From Bdellovibrionales bacterium (GTDB lineage Bacteria; Bdellovibrionota; Bdellovibrionia; Bdellovibrionales; UBA1609), in NCBI GenBank assembly GCA_041391465.1, contig JAWKNX010000014.1, forward strand, positions 14,958 through 78,957: 64,000 nt of DNA. Reading direction: 5' to 3'. Positions 11,666 through 44,464 of this stretch are shown here, piece after piece. The translations under genes were made by a program, and so were the position numbers. Under the pieces are notes generated by a model. That model made no database searches. It had not been told where the DNA came from and saw nothing but the letters and a program-made list of their open reading frames with translations. The number at the start of each line of letters is the position of its first letter. Positions within the stretch are counted from its first letter, which is position 1.

Positions 11666-11679
11666 TTGATCTAGATCAT
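11666..11679. promoter_or_regulatory. FNR/Dnr-type box TTGATCTAGATCAT
   Basis: Palindrome with a TGA-N6-TCA core, centred about 58 nt upstream of the cytochrome c ATG. Confidence 0.6.
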
Positions 11680-11730
11680 ATGTGAAAAGCCAGAATAGAT
11701 TTAAAATAGAATCATTTGAAAGGACTGAAA

Positions 11731-12087
11731 ATGAAAAACCATGTATTTGCACTTCTCTGCGTTCTACTTACTTCTCCAATGGCTTTAGCCGGCAAACCGC
11801 TTCCTTCGTCTCCTGAATTAATTTCCAAAGGACAGGTATCTTACAAAACAAACTGCGCCGTCTGTCATGGTGATAAGGGTGATGGCAATGGGCCAGCAGG
11901 AGCAAGCCTCAACCCCAAAGCAAGAAACTTTATATCTGAGAAATATAAATTTGGATCAAAGCCTGAACAGGTCTTTAAAACAATTAGTGAAGGCTCGAAA
12001 AATACGTCAATGGCTGGATTTGCGCACTTATCTGAAGAGGAAAGATGGGGTTTAACGTATTACGTACTCGGCCTGAAGAAAAAGTAG
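11731..12087 (+). CDS. class I c-type cytochrome, secreted
   Basis: Start set at MKNHVF (AAGGA Shine-Dalgarno). Signal peptide, CAVCH heme site, distal Met region. Confidence 0.8.
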   Translation: MKNHVFALLCVLLTSPMALAGKPLPSSPELISKGQVSYKTNCAVCHGDKGDGNGPAGASLNPKARNFISEKYKFGSKPEQVFKTISEGSKNTSMAGFAHLSEEERWGLTYYVLGLKKK

Positions 12088-12091
12088 ACTG

Positions 12092-13849
12092 CTATTGAGC
12101 CTGATTAATCTTTGCAAACTCCGATTCCAGCAAGGTGCAGAATGATGAAATATGATCAACCGCACCCTCCTTCGATACGGTAAATGGGTTCATCAATGTC
12201 AAACGTAAGAGTTCTAGGTTCTCACAATCACATTCAATTCTTTCTGAGATAGAAAGTTGAGAAATCAGCTTATCAAAATAGTGTTTATTTAATGTTGTCT
12301 TTGATATCCAATACTCTCTGGACTCTTGAATTCGTGAATACAATGTTAAGGTTAGCTGGTTCATTTCGTTTAATGTCTTGGCATTTCCAATCGGTGCAAA
12401 ACACAAAATATTTGTGTCTAGCCCTTGTGGTATATATACATTAAAATTTAATTTTCTAATCTTACTTTCAAAGTCTTTTTTTGCCTGTATGGTTCGTTTA
12501 AGAAGTTTTTTATATCCTCCAGATGAATCGAAAGATTTAATTGACGCATAGGTGGCAACTGCACCCGCTGAAGATCTAGATCCCTCGAGAGTGTAATTTC
12601 CTATGTTTTTTTCCTCACTTACTATATAGGGGCCCGTAAACGATCGCATAAAATAATTTTTTTGATCCTGACAAATAAATGCACCGGATGAATATGGAAC
12701 ATATCCCAATTTATGTGGATCCAAAGTAATAGAGTCAGACATGGCGATTGCTTTTAAGCTTGATTCCAACGCATCAGAAACTAATGATTCGCCTTTATTA
12801 ACTGGATCATTTACCAAACTACCCATAAACCCACCATAAGCGCCATCAACGTGTAACCAAATATCATAGCCCTCGTTGTTTCTGAATTCTTGTAGCACGC
12901 TCGAAATGGAATCAACAGGGTCGACTGTACCCAGCTCGGTCGTTCCAACTATTGCGACAACACCAAGTATGGGACGGCTGCATTTAATTGCCGATTGAAT
13001 TTCTTTTTTTAAGCTCTTTGCACAGGCACGGCCGCTCTGATCTAACTCAATGTACCCAATATTTGATTCTCCCATCCCTAAAAGATGCATAGCTTTTGGC
13101 CAAGAGTAATGCTTACTAGCCGAAACCAAAAGGAGAGGTTCTCCCAAGACAGAGTTGGTTTTTCTTAAAATTTGATCATAGGCATCGCGGCCGTTATTGA
13201 GGATGTAGAACTTTTGTACGTCGGCTTTCGAAGTGTTTTTATCTATCTGGGCAAAATTATTCCATCCCATATGAGCCGATTCGATGAGATTACATTTACC
13301 GAAGGCAACCCCTGTCGCAAGCCAGCGCGCCATTCGTTCACGAGCCCGGAATAAAAATTCAAAATTGGCTACTGTCCCTCCAGATGTGAAATGGCCAACC
13401 CCGTCACTGTAGCCTACGATCTTTTTTAAAAGCCCGATGGCTTCATTTTCCACCTCAGTTCCGACAAACGAAGCTTCCGGTGATATATTATTGGGATTAT
13501 GTAGCAACGTTATAAAATGCCCTAGCAATGCTGGCATACTTATTTCCGAGAACATGTGTCCAATATACCTAGGAGAGAATTTTGGAATTTCGTTTTCAAA
13601 CATTTTAACAATTTCAGATATTATTTTCTTCGTATGCAACTGCTGAGCAATAAACGCATCCAAGCGCTGATCTTCTTCGGAAATAGCTCGACCATCTTTA
13701 AAGTTTATTTGTTTTCGCCAAGCATACCAGCTTTGAAATATTTGTCTCAGAAGTCCTTCAAGCCAGTCCGCATTTTCGGCGGAAGGCCCCAGAAAGAGAC
13801 TCTTAATAGCTACCTCATCGGGTGGACATTTAGCACTTTTCAGAATCAC
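12092..13849 (-). CDS. group II pyridoxal-dependent decarboxylase (tyrosine/glutamate decarboxylase-like)
   Basis: HFTSGGTVANF and DPHKLGYVPYSSG (PLP lysine). The track ORF runs to 13969 but overlaps nnrS by 140 nt. A GTG at 13849 reduces the overlap to 20 nt. Confidence 0.75.
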   Translation of the reverse strand: MILKSAKCPPDEVAIKSLFLGPSAENADWLEGLLRQIFQSWYAWRKQINFKDGRAISEEDQRLDAFIAQQLHTKKIISEIVKMFENEIPKFSPRYIGHMFSEISMPALLGHFITLLHNPNNISPEASFVGTEVENEAIGLLKKIVGYSDGVGHFTSGGTVANFEFLFRARERMARWLATGVAFGKCNLIESAHMGWNNFAQIDKNTSKADVQKFYILNNGRDAYDQILRKTNSVLGEPLLLVSASKHYSWPKAMHLLGMGESNIGYIELDQSGRACAKSLKKEIQSAIKCSRPILGVVAIVGTTELGTVDPVDSISSVLQEFRNNEGYDIWLHVDGAYGGFMGSLVNDPVNKGESLVSDALESSLKAIAMSDSITLDPHKLGYVPYSSGAFICQDQKNYFMRSFTGPYIVSEEKNIGNYTLEGSRSSAGAVATYASIKSFDSSGGYKKLLKRTIQAKKDFESKIRKLNFNVYIPQGLDTNILCFAPIGNAKTLNEMNQLTLTLYSRIQESREYWISKTTLNKHYFDKLISQLSISERIECDCENLELLRLTLMNPFTVSKEGAVDHISSFCTLLESEFAKINQAQ

Positions 13850-14984
13850 ACTCTCCCATAAAAAGGACTGTTCGCAGAAACAATCCCCAAATAAACAATC
13901 CCAACAGGAAAAAAGTTGCAGCCAGAGCATAAAAATGAAGAATGAGTTCCCCACTGAAAAGTGGTCCAATGGCTCTAAAGACTGTGGCAGTCAAGAAAGC
14001 AAAAAAGAATGCTAAAATAGCATTTGCTGATTTTTCCAACTCTAGATTTGCGCCACCATGAGCTAAGGATACTCGAACTGAAACCAAAAAGGTTAAAGAT
14101 GCAATACCCGCTATGTAAAGAATATGAATTAGATGCATTTTATAAGTTGGAAAAAAAAGAATTAAAAAATAACTTAATGGAAACATGAAGGCAGCTGTTG
14201 AAATCGAGATGCCAAGATTCGATTTTTCAGACATCGGCTTTAAAAACCTAAAGTTCTTCAACAGCACAAAACTCATTGTTAATGCACGAATGAGTATTCC
14301 TAGTTCACTTGATAAAAATACTTCAATGAGAAATGATCCGTTAAAAACGACTGCTTCTGTAAAAAACATCTGATGGCTTAATTCATTAACCTCGGCTGGG
14401 GATAAAGCCATGGATTTTCGTGTTAAAACTGGAATAAGCCTACTTCCCAAACCTATAATTAAGTTCAGGACAAATCCTTCGTATAAAAAGAGCTTGCCGA
14501 GCGCTAGCACACTAATAAATCCAAAATTTGAAAACAGGACAAGCACGGATCCAGTTAAGCCAGACACTAACCCGAGCGGGATAAAAATGAATCCAGTTGG
14601 AAGCTCTCGATCCTTCATTTTTAATTTTCTTCTAACAAAAAATGAAATCAAAAAGGTGAACATTCCTGTAGAAACCAAGAATGTAAAAGGATCATGACCC
14701 AAAAAGCTACATATCATAAAAAGCATAACAAGACCGCTGGCGATACTTTTTTCTAATAAACTTGCAGATTGAGTTCCCGTCATTCTGGGTACTGCCGTCA
14801 TAAGAAATCCAGACACATAGCTAAAAACGAAGCCAAGAATCATGATTTGTGAGTGGGTTTTTATTGGATATTCTGCAATGATTCCCAAGTAGAATAGAAT
14901 CCATTGTCCAACCCCTACAATTGAACAAAGAGCCCCTAGAATAAAAAGACCTTTATATGGTTCTGATCGGAAAAATCGCTTCAT
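13830..14984 (-). CDS. nnrS: NnrS-family heme-copper membrane protein (NO-stress associated)
   Basis: 384 aa, about 12 TM segments. The N-terminal region ...HSQIMILGFVFSYVSGFLMTAVPRMTG matches the NnrS signature. Confidence 0.75.
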   Translation of the reverse strand: MKRFFRSEPYKGLFILGALCSIVGVGQWILFYLGIIAEYPIKTHSQIMILGFVFSYVSGFLMTAVPRMTGTQSASLLEKSIASGLVMLFMICSFLGHDPFTFLVSTGMFTFLISFFVRRKLKMKDRELPTGFIFIPLGLVSGLTGSVLVLFSNFGFISVLALGKLFLYEGFVLNLIIGLGSRLIPVLTRKSMALSPAEVNELSHQMFFTEAVVFNGSFLIEVFLSSELGILIRALTMSFVLLKNFRFLKPMSEKSNLGISISTAAFMFPLSYFLILFFPTYKMHLIHILYIAGIASLTFLVSVRVSLAHGGANLELEKSANAILAFFFAFLTATVFRAIGPLFSGELILHFYALAATFFLLGLFIWGLFLRTVLFMGECDSEKC

Positions 14985-15029
14985 AATCCTGCCTATTAGC
15001 AGACTACGATAACTAGCTTAAAAAAGCTT

Positions 15030-15043
15030 ATGATTTAGATCAG
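15030..15043. promoter_or_regulatory. FNR/Dnr-type box ATGATTTAGATCAG
   Basis: Centred about 52 nt upstream of the nnrS ATG. Overlaps the stop codon of the upstream Crp/Fnr gene. Confidence 0.55.
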
Positions 15044-15738
15044 GGCTCTAGATGCTTCAAAAGTTTTTCAACGTAAATAATTTCGGTTCCCTTGTCAGAG
15101 GGTCGATAGATGGTGCCATCGTCTTGCCAGTCTCGCATAGATCTAATAACACTCTCGACGGCAACACCAAGGGCGTCGGCTATTTCTTGACGGGTAAGAC
15201 TTAAAGATAAGGTTTGGTTCGAGTTCTCGGAATCTTGATCTAAGTGACGCATCAAAAGATTTGCGATACGAACTCGTAACGGCGAAGTCGACATTGTCTT
15301 ATCATCTTGAATATTGCTCATTCGCCGGTAAAGCAGGCTATTAAGCCTGCTTTGTATATTGACATCAGACTGCCAATACTGCTTAAAAGTTGACTTTGGA
15401 ATACAAACAATACGAGTGGGGCCCATGGACTTTGCAGATATAGGATAAATAGCTCTTTCATTTTGGTTCATCAACAACGCCCCGACAACATCACCTTGGA
15501 CAGCAAAATGCATGATTATATCTTCGCCGCGAGGGCTATGCCGGAGAAGTTTTATAGCACCGTCCAAAACGATACAAAAACTTTGAGCAGTATCACCGGC
15601 CCTAAAGAAAAACTCCCGATGCTTTAAGCTCTTGGTAACTGCACCAAACGCAGCTTTCTCAACGAAACTACGGTTAAGACCTTTGAACAATTCAAAAGAA
15701 GACAGTTTTTCATAATCTACAGAAACTAAGCCGGCCAT
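15040..15738 (-). CDS. Crp/Fnr-family regulator, Dnr/NnrR-like (no FNR Cys cluster)
   Basis: cNMP-binding-like beta-roll plus C-terminal HTH TRQEIADALGVAVESVIRSM. Lacks the N-terminal Cys motif. Confidence 0.85.
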   Translation of the reverse strand: MAGLVSVDYEKLSSFELFKGLNRSFVEKAAFGAVTKSLKHREFFFRAGDTAQSFCIVLDGAIKLLRHSPRGEDIIMHFAVQGDVVGALLMNQNERAIYPISAKSMGPTRIVCIPKSTFKQYWQSDVNIQSRLNSLLYRRMSNIQDDKTMSTSPLRVRIANLLMRHLDQDSENSNQTLSLSLTRQEIADALGVAVESVIRSMRDWQDDGTIYRPSDKGTEIIYVEKLLKHLEP

Positions 15739-15781
15739 AGACAGAACCTTAACCTAAAGCGTTATTTCTGTCTATTTAAGA

Positions 15782-16072
15782 TTACTCTTTTGGCTGTGCA
15801 CCACAACAGCCGCAGCAACTCTCTTTCCCAAGAGATGCCTGTGATTTTCGCTCAATCAGATAGGCCGCGTCGCCCTTCGATGCATTGCTCGCTCTGACCC
15901 AGCGATACCCATTTAAACCGGACGAGGACAGCTCCGATTCAATTTCGCCTGGATTACGATCGTCGGAGAATGAAAAGGCAGAGCCTTCGCTTAACCCCTC
16001 GATCATCGCGTATAAAAGGGCTTGCCGATACTTCGGAGCAAAAATCTTTAGGTCAATTGTTGGAATATTCAA
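15782..16072 (-). CDS. DUF2249-like protein with C-terminal CCGCCG tail
   Basis: Start set at the in-frame TTG at 16072 (AAGGAGGA Shine-Dalgarno), after the upstream gene stop at 16092. IDLKIF...LSEGSAFSFSDDRNP...YRW resembles DUF2249. The tail is ESCCGCCGAQ. Confidence 0.55.
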   Translation of the reverse strand: MNIPTIDLKIFAPKYRQALLYAMIEGLSEGSAFSFSDDRNPGEIESELSSSGLNGYRWVRASNASKGDAAYLIERKSQASLGKESCCGCCGAQPKE

Positions 16073-16091
16073 ACATCCTCCTTTATTGAGT

Positions 16092-16433
16092 TTAAAACTT
16101 ATATCCAATGCCCAATGCCGAATACCATACAGAACCATAGTAATATGAAGGGATGGCTAGAAACATCTTATCTCGTCCTACAAACAAGCCAGCACCTAAG
16201 ATGGGAGACCACTCATTGACAGAACTGTTGTGTCTAATTGAGGGGAAAAAGCTAAGTCCTCCAAAATAACCCTTATATTCGAATTTGACATTTGGACCAC
16301 CGAAGTTAAGAAAGGAATTCCCTGAGTTGAAAGCTACACTTGGCATACCAAATATTTTGAGTTCGTCATCAGCATAAGAATGATTTGAGGCCGAAAACAA
16401 TAGCACCAGACAAAATAAGTATTTAAGCATCAC
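16092..16433 (-). CDS. small secreted, Gly/aromatic-rich beta-barrel-like protein
   Basis: 113 aa with a signal peptide. Alternating aromatic/Gly pattern, ends in ...GIGYKF (outer-membrane-like C-terminal Phe). Confidence 0.45.
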   Translation of the reverse strand: MMLKYLFCLVLLFSASNHSYADDELKIFGMPSVAFNSGNSFLNFGGPNVKFEYKGYFGGLSFFPSIRHNSSVNEWSPILGAGLFVGRDKMFLAIPSYYYGSVWYSALGIGYKF

Positions 16434-16486
16434 TTGCAGAACCCTCGCCTCTAGAACAGCCTACAAGACGATTGACCAGAGCACTT

Positions 16487-16500
16487 ATGACCTAGGTCAT
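16487..16500. promoter_or_regulatory. FNR/Dnr-type box ATGACCTAGGTCAT (perfect palindrome)
   Basis: In the divergent intergenic region: about 42 nt from the crp2 ATG and about 60 nt from the 16433 ATG. Confidence 0.6.
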
Positions 16501-16535
16501 TAACTATTTAAATAATAAAATACTACCCTTTAAGT

Positions 16536-17222
16536 ATGAATGAAGCCTCGGAATTATCATATCTTAAGAAAAAAATCGCGGAAGTCCTTAGTCTTGATAT
16601 TGATCTCAATGACGATCTCTTTAGATTAGCTTCGATTGTCAATTTAGCACAAGGTCAAGTTCTCTTTACCCAAGGAGAGTTAGCTCAGAACTGTTTTTTA
16701 ATACTTTCGGGGAGCTTGAGAATTTCCTTAAAAATAAATAGTTCAGAATCTACCGTTGCAATTCTTTCGAAAGGAGAATTCGGTGGCGTCTTGTTAATGA
16801 GCAACAGCTCTTCATATTTTCCAGGATCTGTGATAGCTTTAACTCAATCTTGCGTACTCTTAATTCCAAAAGAAACATATGTTACTGCCTGGACAAGAAA
16901 CCCCAAGGCCTTAAACATAATTAATAATTGTGTTCATAAAAGAATGCAGTACCTGCAGGAAGATAAAGCACTCCAACAATTAGATGTGGAAAATCGTCTG
17001 ATTGCTTTTCTACATAGGCACTATCTTGAAAAGAAGGACTTGATATCAAAAAAAATTACTCGTAAAGATATCTCCCTAGCCATCGGTGCTAAAACGGAAA
17101 CAGTTATTAGAGCCTTGAAAAAGCTTGAACGAAATGGTCTCGTCAAAACAGAAAAATCAGTGATAAGCATTTTAGATAGATCATATTTTACGCGTGCGAT
17201 GAATTATGAGAGCAGAAAATGA
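16536..17222 (+). CDS. second Crp/Fnr-family regulator, Dnr/NnrR-like
   Basis: Beta-roll plus HTH RKDISLAIGAKTETVIRALK. No N-terminal Cys cluster. Confidence 0.8.
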   Translation: MNEASELSYLKKKIAEVLSLDIDLNDDLFRLASIVNLAQGQVLFTQGELAQNCFLILSGSLRISLKINSSESTVAILSKGEFGGVLLMSNSSSYFPGSVIALTQSCVLLIPKETYVTAWTRNPKALNIINNCVHKRMQYLQEDKALQQLDVENRLIAFLHRHYLEKKDLISKKITRKDISLAIGAKTETVIRALKKLERNGLVKTEKSVISILDRSYFTRAMNYESRK

Positions 17223-17841
17223 TCTCGTTAACTTCTTTAAAAATGAACATGACGTTCTAATAAGCTGTTTCGAAAAACATTTCTCAATTGCGAAGTCTTC
17301 TTACAATTGGAAGTCGCTATATTCAATTTGTAAGTCCCAATTCGAAGAGAATCACCATGCAAAAGAAGAGCAATTTATCTTCGATGCCGTTAGGAATAAC
17401 AGCAAAATCAAATCCGGTGGCCCACTCTGCACCTATTTCTTTGATTTTCACATGACAAATCCATCACTTCGTCGCGCCATGGAATCAACAAAGAAACTGA
17501 CGGACCTCAATCTTGAGCCGGAATGGTCTCTGCAGATGAAAGAGATAAGGAATCTCAATCTTCCCCTAGTAATTCCAGGCGAGGACCATGAAGCAGGAAG
17601 AATTATTCTTCGGGGTATAGAAAACCTATTTTCACGAGGGCCTTCTGATCAGATTCACGCGAACATTGAAATTTTATTCAAAACATACATTGATATTCAG
17701 AAGGAGCACTTTGATCGCGAGGAAAACTGTTTTTTCATAATGTGTAAACAATTAATTTCACCTGAGAAGTGGGAGCAAATCTATGTCAAAATGTGTAGTC
17801 AGTACCCAATAATTTCAGATACTAATTTAACTATCACTTAG
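17206..17841 (+). CDS. hemerythrin-like (HHE cation-binding) domain protein
   Basis: Repeated His/Glu motifs: NEHDVL, NHHAKEEQFIF, DHEAGR, KEHFDREEN. Overlaps the crp2 stop. Confidence 0.55.
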   Translation: MRAENDLVNFFKNEHDVLISCFEKHFSIAKSSYNWKSLYSICKSQFEENHHAKEEQFIFDAVRNNSKIKSGGPLCTYFFDFHMTNPSLRRAMESTKKLTDLNLEPEWSLQMKEIRNLNLPLVIPGEDHEAGRIILRGIENLFSRGPSDQIHANIEILFKTYIDIQKEHFDREENCFFIMCKQLISPEKWEQIYVKMCSQYPIISDTNLTIT

Positions 17842-17852
17842 CTGCGAAAAAA

Positions 17853-18431: not shown

Positions 18432-18447
18432 ATACTCCTAACTTTCT

Positions 18448-19212: not shown

Positions 19213-20628
19213 TTAGTGCTCGCCTGGTTCTTCTTTTTTAACTGGGACCGCGCTTACTTCTGATTTTTTAAAAGTCTTCTTTTTATTTCCCCAAGAATGC
19301 GAAATGTATGTCAAAACATTTGCAATGTCTTCGTCGCTCATTCCAAGAGCCGGCATCACCCCGTTGTAAGGAGCCCCATTCACAGTAATCGCTCCCTTTT
19401 TTCCATTTTTAACAACATCAATGGCTCGCTTCCAATCCGCATTGAAGTAGTCTGAATTGGCAAGAGGGGGAAAGGCACCAGGAATTCCCTTACCGTCCAT
19501 CTGATGACAAGCAGCACAGTTTTGTTGGTAAACGTTTTTACCGAGCTTCAGCTGATCCTCTAAATTCAGAGCTTTCGAGATAACTTCTTTGTCAGTCACC
19601 TTTTGAATTGCACCGCCCTCAGGCAAGTACACATTATCAGCCGTCTTACCCGAGTAAATTTCTTTATTTTCAGGTCCTTCGACTTTCATCAAACCTAAAG
19701 AGCCCTTGTTGAAAGTTCTAAATATCGAATGGTCCACCAATACTAAATTACTGGGAACCTCTACTTTGTATTCAACTATTGCCGATCCACCGGCCGGCAC
19801 CAGAGTCGTTTGTATATTTGTATTAAATTCCGAAGATCCCTCTCGATAGACTTTATCAAAAATTTCGCCAATGACGTGAAATGACGAGACCAAGTTGGGT
19901 CCACCATTTCCCACATACAATCTAATAGTTTCACCGACCTTTGCTTTTAATGCATTCTCACCTGTCATCGAACTTGTCGATCCATTGAAAACAACATACG
20001 TTGGTCTTTCGTCTATTGCTTTCTCCATATCAAAAGGTTGATAGCCTTGCTTTCCAAATTTACCTTTCGTATAGAAGTCGCCCTGCATGACATAGTATTC
20101 CCGATCAACCTTTGGCATACCCTCTTTAGGCTCTACCAAAATTAAACCATACATGCCGTTCGCAATATGCATTCCAACAGGTGCAGTAGCACAGTGATAA
20201 ACATACAGACCTTTGTTTATTGCCTTAAATGAAAAAACGCTTTCATGACCAGGCAAGGTTAGTGAAGCTGCCGCGCCACCACCCTGTCCGGTCACTGCAT
20301 GTAAGTCGATGTTGTGTGGCATCTTAGAGGAAGGATGATTTTTAAGATGAAACTCAATGGAATCACCTTCCCTAACGCGAATGAAGCTTCCAGGGACAGT
20401 GCCACCAAAAGTCCAAAAGGTATAGTCGACGCCATCAGCAATTTTCATTTTCTTTTCGATAACCTCAAGATTAACAATCAATTTTGCGGGTGATTTTCTT
20501 GTTATTGGTGGAGGCACGTTTGGAGGTGCTGTCAAAACTGCGATCCCACCGGTCTCTGCTGAAACAGCGAATGCTATGGTGTGTATCAATGTTGTCAATA
20601 CAACTAATGCTAAATTATTTTTCTTCAT
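19213..20628 (-). CDS. nirK: copper-containing nitrite reductase fused to a C-terminal c-type cytochrome
   Basis: [16 protein letters not shown] and [20 protein letters not shown] (type 1/2 Cu ligands). C-terminal roughly 100 aa has CAACH. Confidence 0.9.
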
Positions 20629-20707
20629 ATCTTATACTCCGATCATGAGTAATCAAATGATCACCTAACACAATAGTAAGTATAAGACGCATTGGAGTCA
20701 TTCAGAT

Positions 20708-20721
20708 ATGATCGAGATCAT
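20708..20721. promoter_or_regulatory. FNR/Dnr-type box ATGATCGAGATCAT
   Basis: Palindrome centred about 86 nt upstream of the nirK ATG. Confidence 0.55.
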
Positions 20722-20868
20722 GTGTGGAAAATAAATTACAAACTAAAGCCCAAGCAAACTTTTAGAATCACATGATTTTTTTAATTGGATCTACAAACTT
20801 TGGACTTAAGTCTAACAAACGATTTGTACATTCATCTCATTATGTAACTGCTCACTTTTTATCGAAAC

Positions 20869-22755: not shown

Positions 22756-23100
22756 GAAGAAAATAATAGTTAAGATTTTCGTTTGTTTTTAAATTAATTA
22801 ATTTTTGATTTGTAGTGGGCGAGGTCAATGGGCCGAAATTTGCTAGGTACGGTCCATATTTTAAGTAATCGAGCAGGTTCAAAATCGGCTGACCTACTTG
22901 TTGCATTTCGAGCCCTGTATACAAGGCTGTTTTTAAATCATAAGACTTTATACGATTTAATAACTGCTCTAATCCAGACTCATCCCATTCGCCTCCAAGA
23001 AATAGAACACAGGATATATATTCTCTATATTTTTCAAGATCTTTATCTAGCGACTCCAACGTAAGTTCTTGACCAGAAAATGAAGACCACAAATCACTTG
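22724..23100 (-). pseudogene. nrdG: nrdG (class III RNR activase), C-terminal fragment cut off by IS insertion
   Basis: ...DLWSSFSGQELTLESL...LFLGGEW... continues in frame from the N-terminal fragment at 24652-24760 once the IS and one CACTTG copy are removed. Confidence 0.85.
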
Positions 23101-24651
23101 GGCCTGTTGAAAAACCCTACGTGTCGAAGGTTGCCAAAAATTTTATAAATCAAAAAACTCTTTGAAAATCTTCGACGGAGTTTTTTGATATGCAAGGTCA
23201 TCAATCGTACCAGCCTCAGCTTTTTTCTGTATTCAATATGGAAGACCTGATTCCGCCGAGTCATTTGTTGCGCGAAGTTGACAAAAAGATTGATTTTGAG
23301 TTCGTCCGAGAAATTACAGCTGAGCTTTATTGCGCAAATAATGGTCGCCCATCAATTGATCCAGTTTTGTTTATTCGTATTTGTTTATTGATGACGCTCT
23401 ATAATATTCCCTCTGATCGTCAGGTCTGTGAAGAAATTCGGTATAACCTAGCTTACCGTTGGTTTTGTAGGCTTTCGATCGAAGACGAGGTTCCTGATCA
23501 CTCGAGTCTCACGCGCATTCGTGACCGTCTTGGCGAAGAGACGTTCAAAAACATTTTCGATCATGTCGTAAGACTCTGTATCGAGAAGGGGTTTGTCAGT
23601 GGAGAAAAGGTCATGATGGATGGCTCTTTCATAAAGGCCGATGCTGCATTAAACTCGCTGGTTCCGAAAGAAACTGATGCGCCCGAGAGCAACGTCGTCG
23701 ATATTATAGGAAATAAACCATCAAAATATATCAAGGGGAAAAAGTTTTCGAACGAAACACATGTGAGTAAAACAGATCCCGATTGCGCCCTTGCTGGAAA
23801 AGTTGGTGAGCCCAAACGTCTTCGTTATAAAGTACATGAGACTATAGACCGTGATAGCCGAGTTATTCTTGATGCACATATTACTGATGGCAGCGAAGTT
23901 GATGGAAAACAGATGTTCAGCCGTATCGATCATATCGAAGAAACATTTGGCGCGATGATCGCAGAGTTCACAGGAGATCGCGGTTATGGCTACGGAGCCA
24001 ATTTACAAGAATTGGAAAATCGGCAGATAAAGTCATTTGTTCCAAACTTTCATGCCGATGTCGGCGGCCACCTTGAAGACAAAGGGTTTAGGTACAATAA
24101 AGAAAAAGATACCGTCACGTGTCCCGAAGGCCTTGAGCTGGAGTTTAGTGTTATGGCGGATTCGAAGCGGGAAAATGATAGCTGTCGAATTTTCACAATG
24201 AAGAAGGGCAAATGTCGAACTTGCCCGAGGCTCGCGCAGTGCCTACCAAAATCACCGGAGGCAGAACAAAGTTACAGAAAGAGAATTACGGTAAACCTTC
24301 ACAATGAAATTCAAGAAAAGACTAAAGCCCGAGAAAAGAGCTGGGAGTTCAGATTGGTTCGGGGCGAACGACAATGGAAGATGGAGGGTATTTTTGCCGA
24401 AGCAAAAGATAACCATGGTTTAGATCGCGCTCGATACCGCGGGCGAGCGAAAGTTCAAATCCAAGCGTACATGATTGCAGTGGTGCAGAATATCAAGCGC
24501 ATGATGGGTAACGGCCCGGTAGCCGAAATAGGACTACGACTGGCCGCGAATGCGGCTAGGCCGATCGGCCAAACCAAATTTGGTGAAAAACTGCGAATAT
24601 TTTTTCAAATTTTTTTGAATCCTTGTTTTGCCTGACGTTTTTCAACAGGCC
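23101..24651 (+). mobile_element. IS1182-family insertion sequence (1551 bp) with 6-bp target-site duplication
   Basis: Terminal inverted repeats GGCCTGTTGAAAAAC (15/15) at both ends. CACTTG is duplicated at 23095-23100 and 24652-24657. Single transposase ORF. Confidence 0.85.
23190..24635 (+). CDS. IS1182-family (IS5-like DDE) transposase
   Basis: 481 aa. N-terminal GRPSIDPVLFIRICLLMTLYNIPSDRQ...YNLAYRWFC...PDHSSLTRIR (InsH-type N-domain). C-terminal DDE region ending ...RARYRGRAKV. Confidence 0.85.
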   Translation: MQGHQSYQPQLFSVFNMEDLIPPSHLLREVDKKIDFEFVREITAELYCANNGRPSIDPVLFIRICLLMTLYNIPSDRQVCEEIRYNLAYRWFCRLSIEDEVPDHSSLTRIRDRLGEETFKNIFDHVVRLCIEKGFVSGEKVMMDGSFIKADAALNSLVPKETDAPESNVVDIIGNKPSKYIKGKKFSNETHVSKTDPDCALAGKVGEPKRLRYKVHETIDRDSRVILDAHITDGSEVDGKQMFSRIDHIEETFGAMIAEFTGDRGYGYGANLQELENRQIKSFVPNFHADVGGHLEDKGFRYNKEKDTVTCPEGLELEFSVMADSKRENDSCRIFTMKKGKCRTCPRLAQCLPKSPEAEQSYRKRITVNLHNEIQEKTKAREKSWEFRLVRGERQWKMEGIFAEAKDNHGLDRARYRGRAKVQIQAYMIAVVQNIKRMMGNGPVAEIGLRLAANAARPIGQTKFGEKLRIFFQIFLNPCFA

Positions 24652-24760
24652 CACTTGAATGGCATCCAGCACATCTCAAGGGGCATCCTGTTATCTGGTA
24701 CGCCAATGAAATTTCTGTGGGGATTTCTTGAAATACTATCTGACGGCTACTATATCTCAT
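24652..24760 (-). pseudogene. nrdG: nrdG N-terminal fragment carrying the radical-SAM Cys motif
   Basis: Own translation: MRYSSRQIVFQEIPTEISLAYQITGCPLRCAGCHSS, then it runs into the IS end. CxxxCxxC is the activase cluster motif. Confidence 0.8.
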
Positions 24761-24860
24761 GTACTCATTACAGGGCAGCCACTACAGGTAGTCAATTTAC
24801 TGAAAACAATATCGACCTGCGTATGATTAGCGTCAGATACGGGTCTAGCTCGACGCCAAT

Positions 24861-24986
24861 TTAGCTTGCGCCAAGCAAGCATAAACCGCACATTCCCAAT
24901 GTCGCCATAAAGATACCCATTGCCGCCGCTGATACCAACACAAGTCCAGTAAAACTAGAAATCACTATATGTTTAACTAAGGTCAT
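24861..24986 (-). CDS. possible 41-aa hydrophobic peptide upstream of nrdG
   Basis: Own translation: MTLVKHIVISSFTGLVLVSAAAMGIFMATLGMCGLCLLGAS. AGGAGA Shine-Dalgarno upstream. Too short for the ORF track. Confidence 0.3.
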   Translation of the reverse strand: MTLVKHIVISSFTGLVLVSAAAMGIFMATLGMCGLCLLGAS

Positions 24987-25080
24987 AAGCTCTCCTGTGA
25001 ATTTAAGTGTAACCTGATAGGACCTATATTCTTATGACTCCCGTCATACCAGTGACCTTCCCCCTAAAAATTGAATGATA

Positions 25081-25094
25081 CTGATTTAGATCAT
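25081..25094. promoter_or_regulatory. FNR/Dnr-type box CTGATTTAGATCAT
   Basis: Between the nrdJ pseudogene stop and the small-ORF/nrdG/nrdD unit, about 100 nt upstream of the small ORF. Confidence 0.55.
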
Positions 25095-25143: not shown

Positions 25144-27726
25144 TCAATTACACTTGCTGCCTCCGCAATCAATGCATATAAAGCATCCCTCCCTGAGTTG
25201 AATGTTATTCGAATTGCAATCTGAACACTTAATGCCTTTAATTTCTGTCATATACTTTTTTAGAGTGCGTGCGATCGCCTTTGAAAAAGATGTAATGTTC
25301 CCCTCGCTCTTAATAAGTTGGGAAACGATAAACGCAATATCAGCGCCATGGCGGAGAGCTGTAGAAATCATTCGAGTTAGTGCCTCCTGCTCATCCGATT
25401 CAAAGAATTTACTTATATTTTCTATAGCCCAACCATCATCAGTTTCTAAATTGTAAATACCTGAGCCAGCTTTAATTAGTTTCCCCTTTTTAGGTTTAGG
25501 CGGAAGTAAAAGACGATCCTGTTTCATAGCAAAAACCTCATACGGATCACCATCGAGCAGTCCGACGACAACAACCCACTTTTGACCGCTAGTTGTAAGC
25601 GGGTGAATTTCACAATCTAACGACTTTGGTCGTGGAGTCGCTTGGGTCCGCTTCACGCCTAAGTTTTTCTGCACGGCTGTGCTTTCAGAAGAAAGCACAG
25701 CCATCATTGTGCCCTCTCGATAAGACGTACAACCCTTTATTGTCCTAGTCTGGTATACTTCCATATAAAGTCGCTTAAAATCATCATACGGATAGTCCTT
25801 AGATATATTCACGGTCTTGGACATGGCCGAATCAATATATTTTGAGAAAACCTCCATAGTTCGCACGTGATCATCAATTGATAGTTGGTATGAAGTTGCT
25901 GCCCAATCTGCATCAGGGTCCCAGGTCTTCATTTTGGTGTGATACTTGACAGCATAGTCTTGAATTGGTGACTCCTTCAAAAGACCTCGAGAGGCATCAA
26001 ATTTCCAAACTTGATTGTTAACCTTCGTAACTAAAATATCTTCACCGCCCTCTTTAACTCCAGTCCCATTCAGTAGTGCCCGGCTGCAGCTCAAATGTTT
26101 TCTCTCAGTTTATATTATTAGCACTGTCAATCCAATAGGAGCAAACGGTTGAATTGAGGTTCGAATATACTCGGTCATAAAAAGAGGTTCGAGACCACCA
26201 GATACATTATTCTGCCAGGACGGAGCTGTTTCCTGTAGGCTGAACGTTGAAAGCAAATGACTATTACGCAGTCCATATCGACGAATTTTTCCATTGTTTC
26301 TGGATTAAGTCGTTGTACAAACTGCCCAGCTAAGTATTTTTCACTTTCAAATGCGGGAAGGCCCCTTCTTTAGCTAGAAGCGCTGATGCTGAATATGCTT
26401 CATTCATCATAAAATCACAAAGCTCTTCTGTTAACTTCAGAGCCTTTTTTGAACCATAGCGAACTCTTTAGCATCATAAGAGCCGAACCATAGCCCAACA
26501 CACCCAAACCAATGCGACGTTTGTTTAATAGATTTTCTCTTTGTTCTAATAGCGGCACTAGTGTCTTGTCATTAACGTTATCCATAAAACGTACGGCTGT
26601 ATGAATGGACTCTTTAAGTTTAACTGTATCCCAAGTGCCCTGTTCGGCATCTATAAACTGTGTTAAATTAAGTGACCCAAGTAAGCAACATCCTCCGACT
26701 GGCAAGACCTGTTCGCCGCATGGTTTGTCGCATTGATATACTCGAGATAATATAAATTGTTGAGCCTATTAATAGTATCAGAGAACAAAACGCCCGGCTC
26801 ATTACGATTGTATGTCGACTTCATAATTAGGTCCCACAACTCTCCGGCGTTTTCGTACGTTTTGTACTTTTTAACGGGTAGCCCTCGGCTTTTCCAAGAC
26901 GTCAAGTTTCCATCCCAATACTTCTTGTATTCGCTTGGAACGAGCTCATAGTCTGGAAACTCAAGATGCCAAGGCAAAGAGTCTTGCACGGCGGTCATAA
27001 AATTATCGTCAACCAGAACTGACATGTTAAACTTTGTCAGGCGATTCGGAGTTTGTTTGGCAGTTATAAACTCCTCAATATCCGGGTGGAATAGGGACAT
27101 TGTCACCATCTGGGCACCTTTGCGAATTTTCGTTTTTCCTTTTGTAGTATTTTTATTGAAGCCACTCCCAGCCGTAATAACTGAGCTTTGAGTATCCCAC
27201 ATTTCAAGCAATTTTACCGCACCTGGCGAGTCCCCACCAATACCACTTACGTACGCACCACGCGGTCGCAAAACATCGGCACAAAAGCCATACCCCCCCT
27301 CGGACTTTAGAATCAAAGCCTGTCGCTTGAGTTCGTCCATAATACTATCCATTGAGTCTTGGTTTTCACCGCGAAAGCCGCTTACAAAGCAATTAATATA
27401 CGTCGTACCTTGAAGCCCAGTTCCTGCATTAGAAGTAATACGCCCACCAGGAACGAACTTGAAACCTTCAAGCAGATCAAGAAATTTATTCGCCCAAAAA
27501 ATTTGATTCTCGGTCTTTTCCACTGAGGCTAAATCTTTTGCAATAGCAAATGACGATCATTAATATCGGTCTCTCCCGCAAACTTGTAGGTAAGGTTAAA
27601 AACCTCCTCAGAAAAATCATTTGTAAATATTGTATTTCTTTTAGCCAAAATTAGCTCTCGTGACGATAAGCCCGCGACTGATGTTTTATTTATCTTTTTA
27701 TCTTCTTCTACATGGTCAGTATGCAC
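25144..27726 (-). pseudogene. nrdJ: class II (adenosylcobalamin-dependent) ribonucleotide reductase, multiply frameshifted
   Basis: Four track ORFs (27529-27726, 26663-27523, 26415-26705, 25144-26094) plus unlisted pieces are collinear with NrdJ: FVPGGRITSNAG, GGYGF..LRPRG, and NATN-PCGEQ broken by a 1-nt loss. C-terminal Zn ribbon CSDC...CIDC. At least five frame changes. Confidence 0.8.
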
Positions 27727-27824
27727 CGTGCCCCCTATGAACGTATTATATAAAAATTGTATTACAAATAATCTTACATCCTAGTTTATTATTTTTTAAA
27801 ATTGAGAAAGGACTCGTTGCGTTT

Positions 27825-27838
27825 ATGATCAAGGTCAT
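27825..27838. promoter_or_regulatory. FNR/Dnr-type box ATGATCAAGGTCAT
   Basis: About 105 nt upstream of the nrdJ start. Overlaps the hemJ stop codon. Confidence 0.5.
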
Positions 27839-29648: not shown

Positions 29649-29662
29649 TTGACCTAGATCAT
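29649..29662. promoter_or_regulatory. FNR/Dnr-type box TTGACCTAGATCAT
   Basis: In the hemN/DGC divergent region, about 41 nt from each start codon. Confidence 0.6.
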
Positions 29663-29697
29663 ACTTGCTTTCTTAAAAAGCCTGATAAAATCACTTT

Positions 29698-30081
29698 ATG
29701 ACATTAAAAATACCTACGGTTTACTCTTGCTCTGGATGCTCTTCTGCCGCTCAAATGGCGAACCATCTTGCAATTCAATTGGATCGCATTGGTGAAGCCC
29801 AAATGAGCTGTATTGCAGGGGTTGGTGGAGACGTTGGATCTCTAGTGCGTGCTGCAAAAAATTCTGAATTTATCATCACTATAGATGGATGCCCGCTGAA
29901 ATGTTGTCAGGCTTGTCTCCGCAAGCATCAGCTAAAGGCCAAAATGCAAATCGTATTATCAGACTACAAAATTGAAAGGAGACTTCATCAAGACTTCTCC
30001 CAAGAGGAAGCGAAGCATCTATTGCTGAACATTCGCGAAAGATTAAAGACCATTCGAAATTCTGAAGGAAATTGTGAATAA
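29698..30081 (+). CDS. DGC-domain putative zinc-binding protein
   Basis: SCSGCSSAAQMAN ... IDGCPLKCC resembles the DGC family pattern. Confidence 0.6.
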   Translation: MTLKIPTVYSCSGCSSAAQMANHLAIQLDRIGEAQMSCIAGVGGDVGSLVRAAKNSEFIITIDGCPLKCCQACLRKHQLKAKMQIVLSDYKIERRLHQDFSQEEAKHLLLNIRERLKTIRNSEGNCE

Positions 30082-30927: not shown

Positions 30928-30929
30928 AC

Positions 30930-37559: not shown

Positions 37560-37570
37560 ATGCTCCTCTT

Positions 37571-38419: not shown

Positions 38420-38426
38420 AAAAACC

Positions 38427-39557: not shown

Positions 39558-39578
39558 ATTTCCTCCGATGTCTTCGAC

Positions 39579-42500: not shown

Positions 42501-43046
42501 GATTTCGTCCCAACTGACACGAAGCCATTTATCTTTACCCCTTTGAAAAAATTTGGGATCTGGTTTACCTGTAGCTGCATCCCTTGGAAATCCAGAATCC
42601 ACCCATTCTTTAAATCCTCTACGAACCATAGGAGCTTTAACCCTGCGATCACCATAGACTCGTCGAACCAGAGCCAGGCCTTTTTGACAAATACGTGGGT
42701 CCCATCGATGTGAAGATTGGTTCCCGTACAAGTCTTTGGCTTTTCCATAGCCAAAAGAGGGACCAATTCTTAAAACAACGCCGTTTTTGGTATAAGCTCG
42801 TAGTAAGCAGTTGTGCGTGTCATTCGGTGCACATAGAAAGTGATATTCACTGTCGGTCTTGAATATATCTCGATATACTTTTTCCCAATCTCGATTTGGA
42901 TACTGAGCCAACGGATTATCAATAATTGTTGGTTTGAAATACTTTAGAGGTCCACCGAAGACATTGGTACTAGCTAGAACTGTCGCACCAACGGCTGTGC
43001 CCTTCAGAAAAGTTCTTCGCGTTAATTCTTTTTTTTGATCAGACAT
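39579..43046 (-). CDS. Tat-exported NarG/NxrA-like molybdopterin oxidoreductase alpha subunit (type II DMSO reductase family)
   Basis: 1155 aa. Twin-arginine signal [20 protein letters not shown]-terminal His/Cys cluster region [12 protein letters not shown]...C. Molybdopterin-binding-domain length and layout. Confidence 0.85.
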
Positions 43047-43055
43047 ATAAACTCC

Positions 43056-43379
43056 TCATATGTTGTAAATCTCTCCTGTAAATATTGATAACACCGCGGT
43101 TTCTGGCCACTCTTCACTCAAGTGTGCCTGCAGAAGGCCGTTGTTACTTAAAGACAATCGAAAGTTTTTATTCGTATCTTCACTACGAAGACGAATGCCC
43201 TCGGGGAGGGATTCAACTGTCATCTCGAAATTATTTATTTTAATTTTAGCCTTTGTATGAACTGAGAACGCAGCCAAATGGCCAATCGTAATAATGTTCT
43301 TATCTTGAGAGTTCTCGGCAAGATCTGATTGTTTAGGAACAAGATTTTTAAAAAATTCTCTCCGTGAATTGTTAATCAT
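43056..43379 (-). CDS. hypothetical 107-aa protein with a twin-arginine-like motif but no hydrophobic core
   Basis: MINNSRREFFKNLVPKQSDLAENSQ... The rest is beta-rich. Translationally coupled in the nar-like operon. Confidence 0.45.
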   Translation of the reverse strand: MINNSRREFFKNLVPKQSDLAENSQDKNIITIGHLAAFSVHTKAKIKINNFEMTVESLPEGIRLRSEDTNKNFRLSLSNNGLLQAHLSEEWPETAVLSIFTGEIYNI

Positions 43380-44167
43380 GCTCGCTCCCCATAGACAGCA
43401 ACTGGACTTGCGTCTTTTAAATTGAAGAACGGAAATTTTTCCTTAACCAGCTTTTCTAAATGAGATCGGTAAATAGTACCTGCTGACCCACACGTTAAGT
43501 TCTCTTTGGGCTCAAGTTTGTAGAGAAGGTTTTTTTCAGACAATCCAAGAAATTTAAGGTCAATTTTCATTTCACTAAATTTTTGCTGAATAGCCTCAAG
43601 ATCTAATCTGAGATTCTCTGGTAATGCGCCCCACTTGTTTGAGTTTGACCAAATCGCATCAGTAGGGCTCGATTCTTCATCAAAAAAAACATCAATACAT
43701 TCATCATCATTGACTGCGACCGAGCTATTTCGAACAAATCCAACTTCATCGCTGATTCCAACGACCAAGCCGTCAATAGCTTCTCTCCAATATTGGCAAT
43801 AACGATGGCCGATTTGACGACCGAAAGTACAACCTTTTCGATTGAGAACTTGGGCCGATGGTTTTGTTTCCCATGTACCCTGGAAACATGGAGAACCAAG
43901 CTTTCCAACGTAAGTGGTAAAATCACTTTTTTCCCATGCTAAGTTTTTAGATTTTTGGTAGCTTCGTCCAAGATTTCTTGAATTTAAAAAAACTGACTTT
44001 AGTAGCTCATCGAATTTTTCTTCTTCTAGACTATTTATATCTAATAAGAATTCGTCTTCTCTTACTCTGCTTTCAAGAACTTCTCTAAAGGCGTACTCTC
44101 GAGCAGCTTTCCATCTTGCTCCTAAATCTTGCACTGTGCTTTCTACATAGTCTTGAGAATTCTCCAT
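43376..44167 (-). CDS. hypothetical 263-aa Cys-containing protein
   Basis: ORF tightly coupled to tatA (TGAGATG junction) and to the next ORF. Cys residues in CFQG..C..C..ECID..C. No family recognised. Confidence 0.45.
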   Translation of the reverse strand: MENSQDYVESTVQDLGARWKAAREYAFREVLESRVREDEFLLDINSLEEEKFDELLKSVFLNSRNLGRSYQKSKNLAWEKSDFTTYVGKLGSPCFQGTWETKPSAQVLNRKGCTFGRQIGHRYCQYWREAIDGLVVGISDEVGFVRNSSVAVNDDECIDVFFDEESSPTDAIWSNSNKWGALPENLRLDLEAIQQKFSEMKIDLKFLGLSEKNLLYKLEPKENLTCGSAGTIYRSHLEKLVKEKFPFFNLKDASPVAVYGERA

Positions 44168-44168
44168 C

Positions 44169-44384
44169 TCAGCCCTCTTCTCTATTCAAAATTTGGGGCC
44201 TTTCTGACGAGCCTGATATCTGTCTACGGTCAATCTCCTCACCATTTGTGTCTTGAAGCCCTTTTTTGAAATTAGAAATTGTTTTGCCCAACGCTTGACC
44301 AAGAGAAGGCAGTCGACTTGGTCCAAAAAAAAGAAGAGCGATTCCCCCAATAAGTAAAATTTCAGTCATCCCAAGTCCACCCAT
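44169..44384 (-). CDS. tatA: TatA/E-family twin-arginine translocase subunit
   Basis: Start set at MGGLGMTEILLIGGIALLFFGPSRLPSLGQALGKTISNFKKG (TAGGAG Shine-Dalgarno). The long upstream extension in the track contains the FNR-like box. Confidence 0.8.
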   Translation of the reverse strand: MGGLGMTEILLIGGIALLFFGPSRLPSLGQALGKTISNFKKGLQDTNGEEIDRRQISGSSERPQILNREEG

Positions 44385-44450
44385 AGCAACTCCTAATATT
44401 CTCAAGTGGTTTTCACTGTCAGATACTACGGGAGATAGAATTGAATGCTT

Positions 44451-44464
44451 ATGACTTAGATCAC
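44451..44464. promoter_or_regulatory. FNR/Dnr-type box ATGACTTAGATCAC
   Basis: Centred about 73 nt upstream of the tatA ATG, at the head of the tatA-nar-like operon. Confidence 0.55.

Follow-up and report, generated by a model that had tools for sequence, protein, structure and literature searches.

The 64,000-nucleotide stretch of DNA analysed here (positions 14,958 to 78,957 of contig JAWKNX010000014.1, assembly GCA_041391465.1, from a Bdellovibrionales bacterium; hereafter, the window) carries ten copies of a short palindromic box, placed in front of genes of nitrogen-oxide (N-oxide) and anaerobic metabolism. Judging from the sequence, these boxes are likely the operators of a Bdellovibrionota-specific branch of CRP/FNR regulators, represented in the window by two genes, crp1 and crp2, and the consensus that best accounts for them is tATGAyCTAGrTCATa. 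In our view, this is a genuine, well-conserved FNR-type regulon in an unstudied phylum, in which the recognition code is shifted and the promoters are rigid in geometry and, by prediction, partly leaderless. Note that no known principle is overturned here, the arrangement being a lineage-specific variant of a textbook mechanism.

A preliminary description of this DNA had listed eight 14-bp palindromes, and all eight are present with the sequences and coordinates given for them. The total, on the other hand, has to be raised to ten, with extra sites at 24823-24836 and 25034-25047. The consensus of the earlier list, WTGAYYTAGRTCAY, gives 13 strand matches in the 64-kb window when at most one mismatch is allowed, and these are the eight sites, while dinucleotide shuffles lead one to expect 0.71 +/- 0.82 matches (a maximum of 3 in 100 shuffles), an 18-fold excess. 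A matrix built from the eight sites scores them at 17.0-21.6 bits and the runner-up position in the 64 kb at 10.9 bits, a test that is circular. For a non-circular one, a 16-bp matrix was derived from 37 sites in 19 other Bdellovibrionota genomes, with close relatives left out. The consensus of this independent matrix is TATGATCTAGATCATA, including the central CTAG, and at 12 bits or more it picks exactly 10 positions in the window, as compared with 1.1 in shuffled sequence, the next best position scoring 10.9 bits. The palindrome is confirmed, and it is stronger than first noted.

The placement of the boxes is equally regular. The core TGAY-N4-RTCA occurs 11 times in the window, and 10 of the 11 matches are non-coding. 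In particular, the sites had been described as intergenic or at gene ends, which holds for all ten real boxes: they are non-coding, those at 15030 and 27825 overlap stop codons, and the one at 44451 falls within the longest open reading frame (ORF) of its place, the real start of tatA being the ATG at 44384. The distance between box centre and start codon, given earlier as 40-105 nt, was measured at 40.5 (hemN) to approximately 105 nt (nrdJ). It had also been remarked that the motif was not noticed in front of the thiol, ABC and metal genes, and matrix scans find no further box in front of these elsewhere in the window. The reading of the TGA-N6-TCA core as an operator of the FNR-box type is likewise supported by the sequence. 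An Rfam search over the whole window returned a molybdenum cofactor (Moco) riboswitch only, and nothing at the boxes. As for the eleventh core match, at 51717, it lies within a MacB/FtsX-type permease gene, has no -10 element and scores 8.1 bits, and was set aside as a chance match. Weaker matches at 13037, 18916, 34939, 10157 and 12571 were rejected as well, all being inside ORFs with Pfam domains, and none of those with a listed score exceeds 11 bits.

Relatives were collected by a protein-profile search with one genome per species, which yielded 18 loci, all from Bdellovibrionota and with GC contents of 32-65%, a range over which the box persists; further contigs of relatives (all loci are denoted L001 and so on below) were added via exact protein look-ups. 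In 326 kb from 18 contigs, where 12.6% of the DNA is intergenic, 20 of 23 matches of at least 16 bits are intergenic, and the remaining three fall in places with over-called long ORFs in high-GC DNA. In the relative loci, a box stands before genes that come first in their operons, namely before nirK in 8 of 9 cases, nrdG in 9 of 10, the gene for a DGC-domain protein (hereafter DGC) in 6 of 6, the gene for a DUF2249-like protein in 10 of 14, nnrS in 7 of 12, HiPIP in 4 of 6, nrdJ in 2 of 2 and a 41-aa ORF in 2 of 2, as well as before norB (qNorB) in L021. Before internal genes no box was found, be it nrdD (0/11), nirV (0/7) or SCO1 (0/7). What is more, distances are kept: box and nrdG are 68.5-69.5 nt apart in seven genomes (the window, L009, L014, L017, L019, L021 and L025), box and nnrS 52.5 nt apart in three (the window, L001 and L023), and box and DGC 41.5-42.5 nt apart in five (41.5 nt in L015, L025, L026 and L027). 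Regulator genes are preceded by boxes in relatives as well, and genes of the crp1 type occur in all 18 loci with boxes nearby.

A telling case is that of the nar operon served by the box at 44451, which in L024 is 98% identical. Namely, the homology to L024 ends inside the box, at 44454, and the upstream DNA is unrelated, but L024 nonetheless has a box, CTGATCTCGATCAT. That the box was retained while its flank was swapped suggests that the box itself is under selection. The unrelated upstream DNA of L024 contains integrase-like and HNH-like genes. A similar junction is seen in the comparison with L025, where the homology stops at approximately 25114; in both of these close relatives it stops in or within 20 nt of a box, and operon modules seem to have been reshuffled at their boxes. 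In L026, a box precedes the first gene of the orthologous nar-like operon, 73.5 nt from the called start and 52.5 nt from the re-estimated one. A metagenome scan with the nar-operon protein encoded at 43376-44167 returned one locus only, 98% identical.

Which proteins would read the boxes? The window encodes two candidates. The crp1 gene (15040-15738, minus strand) specifies a CRP/FNR-family protein of 232 aa with the helix-turn-helix (HTH) LTRQEIADALGVAVESVIR, and crp2 (16536-17222, plus strand) one of 228 aa with the HTH ITRKDISLAIGAKTETVIR and with its start codon at the predicted transcription start. The two are 24% identical; both score above the cut-offs of PF00027 (cNMP_binding) and PF13545 (HTH_Crp_2), which makes them members of the CRP/FNR superfamily, and the PDB matches of both are all CRP/FNR-family proteins. 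The box has the corresponding form, a palindrome with 5-bp arms and TGA/TCA cores 6 bp apart, co-inherited with the regulators. Both paralogs had been said to lack the Cys cluster of FNR and to share an E-x-V-I-R recognition helix, and on both counts we agree. Crp1 has two Cys residues and Crp2 three, none of them being conserved among orthologues or across the family alignment, so that, for want of an N-terminal Cys cluster, neither should be a [4Fe-4S] oxygen sensor. The helix E-S/T-V-I-R can be read directly from the two sequences. In 31 Crp1 homologues (98% down to 40% identity) the stretch LTRQEIADxLGVAVESVIR is invariant, and every box-adjacent paralog has E-[ST]-[VI]-[IV]-R, box and recognition helix being inherited together across loci.

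The helix and the box depart from FNR at one position each. In FNR, the helix E209-x-x-S212-R213 reads TTGAT-N4-ATCAA, with Ser-212 among the three main contact residues on TTGATCTAGATCAA (PMC4505428). Relative to the E-x-x-S-R of FNR and Dnr, the Glu and the Arg are retained here and the Ser is replaced by Ile, so the helix is not an FNR helix in the strict sense. At the outer position, 107 of 134 half-sites have an A and 6 a T, which is the sole difference from the FNR consensus, and canonical TTGAT-N4-ATCAA boxes are not enriched in the non-coding DNA of these genomes. Such an outer A would be in keeping with the substitution of the residue equivalent to FNR Ser-212. If so, the Ser-to-Ile change in the helix, paired with the T-to-A change in the box, would be an additional entry for the CRP/FNR recognition code.

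The preliminary description had assigned the regulon to the Dnr/NnrR type. The regulators would then be haem-based nitric oxide (NO) sensors of the Dnr/NnrR subfamily acting at FNR-type boxes, a view that can draw on the classical targets nirK and nnrS here and qNorB in L021, on the missing FNR Cys cluster, and on the fact that Dnr (3DKW) is the top functionally characterised structure for the Crp1 profile, at 1.6e-19. We consider it unlikely, and neither the label itself nor haem-based NO sensing finds support in the sequences. Namely, when the Crp1 family profile is compared with structures, an uncharacterised Ruegeria protein leads with 80.4 bits, followed by Dnr with 73.3 and E. coli CRP with 72.2 bits, so that Dnr and CRP are not distinguished, and with the single Crp1 sequence CRP (39 bits) even precedes Dnr (37.5 bits). 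Crp2 matches Dnr at 1e-5, behind Thermus Crp and NtcA. FNR (5E44) is found with an E-value of 3e-4 by the single sequence and 6e-14 by the profile, and neither regulator approaches any NCBIfam equivalog cut-off. In CRP itself, cyclic AMP is contacted by G71/E72 and R82/S83. The 'GEL' stretch of CRP aligns with a family-invariant 'GAL', with Ala in place of the contacting Glu, and the Arg/Ser positions lie in a variable stretch, which means that this set of contacts is not found in the family. The operators argue in the same direction, since the DNR box is CTTGATnnnnATCAAG (CTTGAT..ATCAAG) and the NnrR box ctTTGcgnnnncgCAAag (TTGCG-N4-CGCAA) (PMC1274295), whereas the boxes before nirK, nnrS and norB are of the form tATGAy-N4-rTCATa, with arms ATGAT..ATCAT and an E-x-x-I-R helix to go with them, and the box of nnrS, ATGATTTAGATCAG, has no TTGCG arms. 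Finally, targets of the FNR/Anr type are present too, namely hemN, nrdDG, nar and Moco-linked genes. Those homologues of the regulator that bear an organism name are all from Bdellovibrionota, and an exact look-up of Crp1 in public assemblies gave no record. At E<=1e-30, the branch comprises 69 clusters (50% identity) in 1.84 billion representatives, and, of the 150 nearest clusters at 50% identity, 102 have G-x3-E-x-x-I-R. We file these proteins as an unnamed CRP/FNR branch, small but real, that would work like FNR/Dnr, and not as Dnr or NnrR.

How this branch relates to known systems can be stated in more general terms. With E. coli FNR it shares the cNMP-like sensor domain combined with a Crp-type HTH, and the TGAT-N4-ATCA core with CTAG at its centre (PMC4505428); a predicted class II position at -41.5, in the place of the -35 element, and the targets hemN, nrdDG and nar are also common to both. 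It differs from FNR in having an outer A instead of T, an E-x-x-I-R helix, no Cys cluster and weak sequence similarity. The Anr/Dnr regulons of Pseudomonas and the DNR regulons of beta-proteobacteria (PMC1274295) resemble it in that several paralogs share one helix and one box and that regulators themselves stand behind boxes; nirK and norB are targets in both, and, as in Dnr, the Cys cluster is absent. Unlike Dnr, to which they are not specifically related, the paralogs here are Bdellovibrionota-specific and differ in outer base and helix residue. Alpha-proteobacterial NnrR controls nirK, nor and nnrS (PMC1274295), and nnrS belongs to the present regulon too, although the arms of the NnrR box are TTGCG as opposed to ATGAY here and the lineage is another one. 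A precedent for the recognition code is given by HcpR/HcpR2 and other cases of regulator and motif co-evolving in the CRP/FNR family (Rodionov et al. 2005, PMC1274295), where a helix substitution is paired with a changed arm base in a nitrosative/anaerobic regulon. That said, the position concerned here is equivalent to FNR-212/CRP-184, not to CRP R180/E181, the box has ATGAT instead of TGTGA, TTGAC or GTAAC, and no hcp was seen in the regulon.

One could also argue that the boxes are read mainly by another CRP/FNR protein, encoded outside the window, such as an oxygen-sensing, Cys-rich paralog, crp1 and crp2 being mere members of the regulon. The visible portion of the genome is, after all, 64 kb, and a third type of Crp paralog, with five conserved Cys and the helix E-S-V-I-R, does exist in relatives (L014, 13551-14246; L017, 2310-2993; L019, 15902-16591), where it occupies the position equivalent to crp2; this five-Cys paralog may be an Fe-S oxygen sensor. 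We nevertheless regard such an arrangement as improbable in the present case. The window encodes no Cys-rich paralog, Crp1 and Crp2 have the very helix that is common to all box-linked paralogs, and, as described above, crp1-type genes with boxes close by are found in each of the 18 loci.

What, then, would Crp1 and Crp2 sense? The regulon mixes targets of the NO type (nirK, nnrS, norB) with targets of the low-oxygen type (hemN, nrdDG, nrdJ, nar), which is in keeping with several paralogs acting at one box, in the manner of Anr and Dnr. Low oxygen and/or NO is the probable signal, perceived by means other than an FNR-type Fe-S cluster, and a hemerythrin-like partner may be involved. Namely, a hemerythrin-like gene (17206-17841, plus strand) overlaps the end of crp2, to which it is translationally coupled, and such genes adjoin Crp paralogs in 12 loci. 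Hemerythrin-like genes at 2190-2735 in L028 and 7285-7704 in L029 likewise adjoin distant regulators with the E-x-x-I-R helix (here E-T-A-I-R), in loci that have ATGAT-N4-ATCAT boxes as well; a third distant locus of this kind (two contigs, L030/L031) has no boxes near the gene and is uninformative. As a working hypothesis, we propose the hemerythrin-like protein as a candidate sensor or modulator of the oxygen/NO response.

The geometry of the promoters suggests how the boxes would act. In 53 of 134 site-directions, the 14-mer is followed at 22-23 nt by a hexamer TAnnnT (consensus tTAnaCT), as compared with 4% at random intergenic positions. In the window, 8 of the 10 boxes have a -10 hexamer on the side of the gene, and the two boxes shared by divergent units have one on both sides. 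With this spacing, the box would extend from -48 to -35 around a centre at -41.5, and the hexamer would occupy -12 to -7. In silico, this is the layout of a class II activator promoter, with a predicted site near -41.5 and a -10 element approximately 22 bp after the 14-mer; for FNR, the promoters of the FF-41.5 type represent the class II arrangement (PMC4505428). What is more, in 16 of 134 directions an ORF of 80 aa or longer starts with an ATG 40.5-42.5 nt away from the centre of the box, the background being 1%. This concerns crp2, hemN and DGC in the window and the genes of crp2, nnrS, DGC, a pyridoxal phosphate (PLP) decarboxylase and hemerythrins in relatives. With the ATG at the predicted transcription start of crp2, hemN and DGC, their mRNAs would begin with the A of the ATG, and leaderless transcription of these three genes appears to be the simplest reading. 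In this sense, several genes of the regulon are predicted, from the rigid spacing of box, -10 and ATG, to have leaderless mRNAs.

Could the boxes instead be operators of a repressor that blocks overlapping promoters under non-inducing conditions? CRP/FNR proteins are capable of repression, the boxes overlap the predicted -35 region, and two of them, 25081 and 27825, have no -10 element at an activating distance. Still, we give this idea little credence. Fixed phasing is not needed at repressor sites, whereas here the spacing to the -10 is fixed at 22-23 nt in the 53 of 134 cases just mentioned, roughly ten times the background, and a box at -48 to -35, where the -35 element would otherwise be, is, as far as the predicted geometry goes, the signature of class II activation (PMC4505428). 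As to the palindromes having no regulatory role at all, being chance occurrences, Dam/CTAG restriction-type sites, repeat ends or recombination sites, the boxes do contain GATC and CTAG, and the homology of relatives does end at or near two of them (L024 at 44454; L025 20 nt from 25081), but this can safely be dismissed in view of the 18-fold excess over shuffles, the strictly promoter-proximal positions with distances kept before orthologues over GC contents of 32-65%, and the fact that TGAY/RTCA arms are fixed around four variable central nucleotides, the flanks of different copies being unrelated and having no common sequence.

Several points weigh against the proposal that Crp1 and Crp2 activate through these boxes. 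The source organism is an uncultured bacterium represented by a metagenome-assembled genome (MAG). Binding by the regulators and box-dependent expression are predictions. The -41.5 geometry is likewise predicted, from -10-like hexamers and start codons, and boxes 25081 and 27825 have no recognisable -10. The scan of the source genome covers 64 kb only, to which its ratio of coding to non-coding matches applies. The association between Ile in the helix and A in the box is a correlation. What is more, there are 2-4 paralogs with the same helix per genome, which means that the box is not assignable to one protein, and the main reader could be yet another paralog, with its gene outside the window.

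The reading that we prefer, namely that the boxes are the operators of the Bdellovibrionota-specific branch, would work as follows. A dimer of Crp1 or Crp2 would bind each box (A-box ATGATCTAGATCAT) through the recognition helix E-S/T-V-I-R. Centred 41.5 bp upstream of the start, in place of a -35 element, the box would serve to recruit RNA polymerase to the TAnnnT -10, by class II activation as at the FF-41.5 promoters of FNR. Single symmetric boxes would drive back-to-back promoters between crp2 and the small-gene-crp1 unit and between hemN and DGC, and, where the start codon is the predicted start (crp2, hemN, DGC), leaderless mRNAs would result. The predicted regulon consists of nirK with a nirV-like gene and SCO1/SenC, nnrS with a PLP decarboxylase, a cytochrome c, hemN with hemJ-like, DGC, the class III and class II ribonucleotide reductases (both inactivated here), a Tat-exported Nar-like operon and both regulator genes. 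Since crp1 and crp2 both stand behind the box at 16487, positive feedback is expected. Here, the sites and their non-random placement, their recurrence before orthologous first genes, the constant distance to the -10 hexamer and the joint inheritance of box and helix are observed, and we infer which paralog binds, that it activates rather than represses, where leaderless transcripts start and what the signal is. Only tentatively would we go further and join all of this into a single picture, in which a sizeable and so far undescribed CRP/FNR branch with Ile at the Ser-212 position (G-x3-E-x-x-I-R) reads tATGAT-N4-ATCATa in place of TTGAT-N4-ATCAA, has multiplied to 2-4 paralogs of the same specificity per genome, obtains its oxygen/NO signal from a genetically coupled, hemerythrin-like di-iron protein and not from an Fe-S or haem centre of its own, and acts at hard-wired, leaderless class II promoters; this wider combination we hold to be rather doubtful as a whole.

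The individual boxes and the units that they would serve are as follows, distances being those from box centre to start codon and -10 elements being predicted ones. The first proposal, that a regulon for N-oxide and anaerobic metabolism is marked out by the boxes, is supported; the genes were identified with Pfam and NCBIfam. The first box (TTGATCTAGATCAT, 11666-11679) lies 58.5 nt before the ATG at 11731 of a cytochrome c gene (11731-12087), with a -10, TAAAAT, at 11702-11707, and its orthologue precedes the cytochrome c gene in L001. The second, ATGATTTAGATCAG at 15030-15043, overlaps the stop codon of crp1 and stands 52.5 nt before the ATG of nnrS at 14984, with a -10, TAGTCT, at 15006-15001; the unit consists of nnrS and the PLP-decarboxylase gene. 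The latter (12092-13969, minus strand) encodes a tyrosine-decarboxylase-like PLP enzyme that recurs in the regulon, its gene being next after nnrS not only in the window but also in L001 and L023. In L010, L017 and L019, the PLP decarboxylase has a box of its own at 41.5-54.5 nt.

The third box (16487-16500) is a perfect palindrome, ATGACCTAGGTCAT, between the divergent crp2 and small-gene units, and the same arrangement is found in L001, L014, L017, L019 and L021. Rightward, it would serve crp2 and the hemerythrin-like gene, with the ATG at 16536 (42.5 nt), a -10 at 16524-16529 and a predicted leaderless geometry. Leftward, it faces genes for a signal-peptide protein and a DUF2249-like protein, followed by crp1, with a GTG at 16433 (60.5 nt) and a -10 at 16463-16458. 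The DUF2249 label, given earlier to the product of 15782-16138, is supported in that one homologue is named DUF2249 by the Joint Genome Institute, but not by Pfam, where neither this gene nor the other small ORFs have a hit even at E<=1; a homology search with this gene finds 22 relatives only. The fourth box, ATGATCGAGATCAT at 20708-20721, is 86.5 nt from the ATG of nirK at 20628, with a -10, TATACT, at 20684-20679, in front of a unit of nirK, a nirV-like gene and a SCO1/SenC gene (20628-17853). NirK is identified by TIGR02376 (370 bits versus a cut-off of 296), and its product carries a cytochrome c domain.

Two units share the box at 29649-29662, TTGACCTAGATCAT. To the left are hemN and a hemJ-like gene (29615-27835), with the ATG of hemN at 29615 (40.5 nt) and a -10, TAACGT, at 29626-29621, and to the right the gene for the DGC-domain protein (29698-30081), with its ATG at 29698 (42.5 nt) and a -10, TAAAAT, at 29686-29691; on both sides the predicted geometry is leaderless. 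The DGC protein is 100% identical to one from a Bdellovibrionales MAG. HemN is identified by TIGR00538, with 383 bits versus a cut-off of 325. The last box of the window, ATGACTTAGATCAC at 44451-44464, lies 73.5 nt before the ATG of tatA (44384), with a -10, TAGTAT, at 44428-44423. A histidine kinase and a sigma-54-dependent response regulator are encoded at 7191-9919, just upstream of the island, and no box is found there.

The region between nrdJ and nrdG deserves a closer look, as it holds three boxes, versus one in the preliminary description, and its genes are damaged. The box at 24823-24836 (CTGACGCTAATCAT, minus strand; 13.2 bits) is 69.5 nt before the ATG of nrdG at 24760 and has a -10, TAAATT, at 24799-24794, and the one at 25034-25047 (ATGACTCCCGTCAT; 14.4 bits) is 54.5 nt before the ATG at 24986 of a 41-aa ORF, with a -10, TACACT, at 25011-25006. 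The box at 25081-25094, CTGATTTAGATCAT, is 47 bp upstream of 25034 and 101.5 nt from the start of the 41-aa ORF, and has no -10 on either side. A sixth box of the earlier list, ATGATCAAGGTCAT at 27825-27838, overlaps the stop codon of the HemJ-like gene and precedes the nrdJ pseudogene by approximately 105 nt, without a canonical -10. The small ORF, nrdG and nrdD had been taken for one unit. This cannot be maintained: the small ORF and nrdG each have their own box, and nrdG is interrupted by an insertion sequence (IS) of 1.56 kb (23094-24658, plus strand), with 22-nt inverted repeats at 23094-23115 and 24637-24658 and a DUF772/DDE_Tnp_1_6 transposase at 23190-24635. The N-terminal part of nrdG, with the CxxxCxxC motif, is at 24760-24659 and the remainder at 23092-22724, followed by nrdD at 22755-20929; the frame is continuous again once the IS and a single copy of the 3-bp repeat ATT are taken out. 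The IS cuts nrdD and the 3' part of nrdG off from the boxes at 24823, 25034 and 25081. That nrdJ (25144-27741) is a pseudogene, as first proposed, is borne out by comparison with the 860-aa orthologue of L019, from which it differs by four or more frame changes. Given the IS in nrdG and the frameshifts in nrdJ, both oxygen-independent ribonucleotide reductases would be inactive here, with their boxes intact. Elsewhere, an intact nrdJ has a box at 107.5 nt (L019) or 85.5 nt (L007). Dead reductases with surviving boxes suggest a population that is losing strictly anaerobic growth and keeping nitrite and nitrate reduction.

The box at 25081 can be understood by comparison with L025, where the arrangement is intact and boxes stand 69.5 nt before nrdG, 54.5 nt before the 41-aa ORF and 41.5 nt before a divergent DGC gene, those equivalent to 25034 and 25081 being identical in sequence. 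To the right of 25081, identity with L025 extends over 20 nt, after which the sequence of the window becomes that of the 3' end of the nrdJ pseudogene. Since the homology ends beyond the box, 25081 probably once served a DGC promoter at -41.5 and was orphaned when that promoter was lost in a rearrangement, although it could alternatively be an upstream tandem site, 47 bp from the box at 25034. The 41-aa ORF itself (24861-24986, minus strand) is hydrophobic, contains Cys, has a good Shine-Dalgarno sequence and its own box, and lies upstream of nrdG; its counterpart in L025, conserved in place, is annotated as a gene.

Taken as a whole, the boxes amount to a map, open to testing, of how Bdellovibrio-like bacteria may regulate N-oxide respiration and adapt to low oxygen. 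A search of the searchable part of the literature found nothing relevant on the regulation of denitrification in Bdellovibrio, on leaderless mRNAs in Bdellovibrio or on the motif string, and we know of no published description of this N-oxide/low-oxygen regulation in such bacteria.

The array that begins with tatA runs along the minus strand and comprises tatA, two unassigned genes, a Tat-exported NarG-like protein, a NarH-like protein, an EB_dh haem subunit and a NarJ-like chaperone, followed by the Moco riboswitch and Moco biosynthesis genes as far as a TauE-like gene (30124). With a Tat signal on the NarG-like protein and an EB_dh haem subunit, the enzyme is predicted to be a periplasmic member of the type II dimethyl sulphoxide (DMSO)-reductase family, with nitrate as a conceivable substrate. 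The two genes between tatA and the NarG-like gene (43056-44167, minus strand) encode proteins of 263 and 107 aa that have no family assignment and are kept in L024 and L026. The Moco riboswitch (36872-36738, minus strand; 85.5 bits) sits between the NarJ-like gene and moaA, and with this element upstream, the Moco biosynthesis genes would be under a cis-control of their own.

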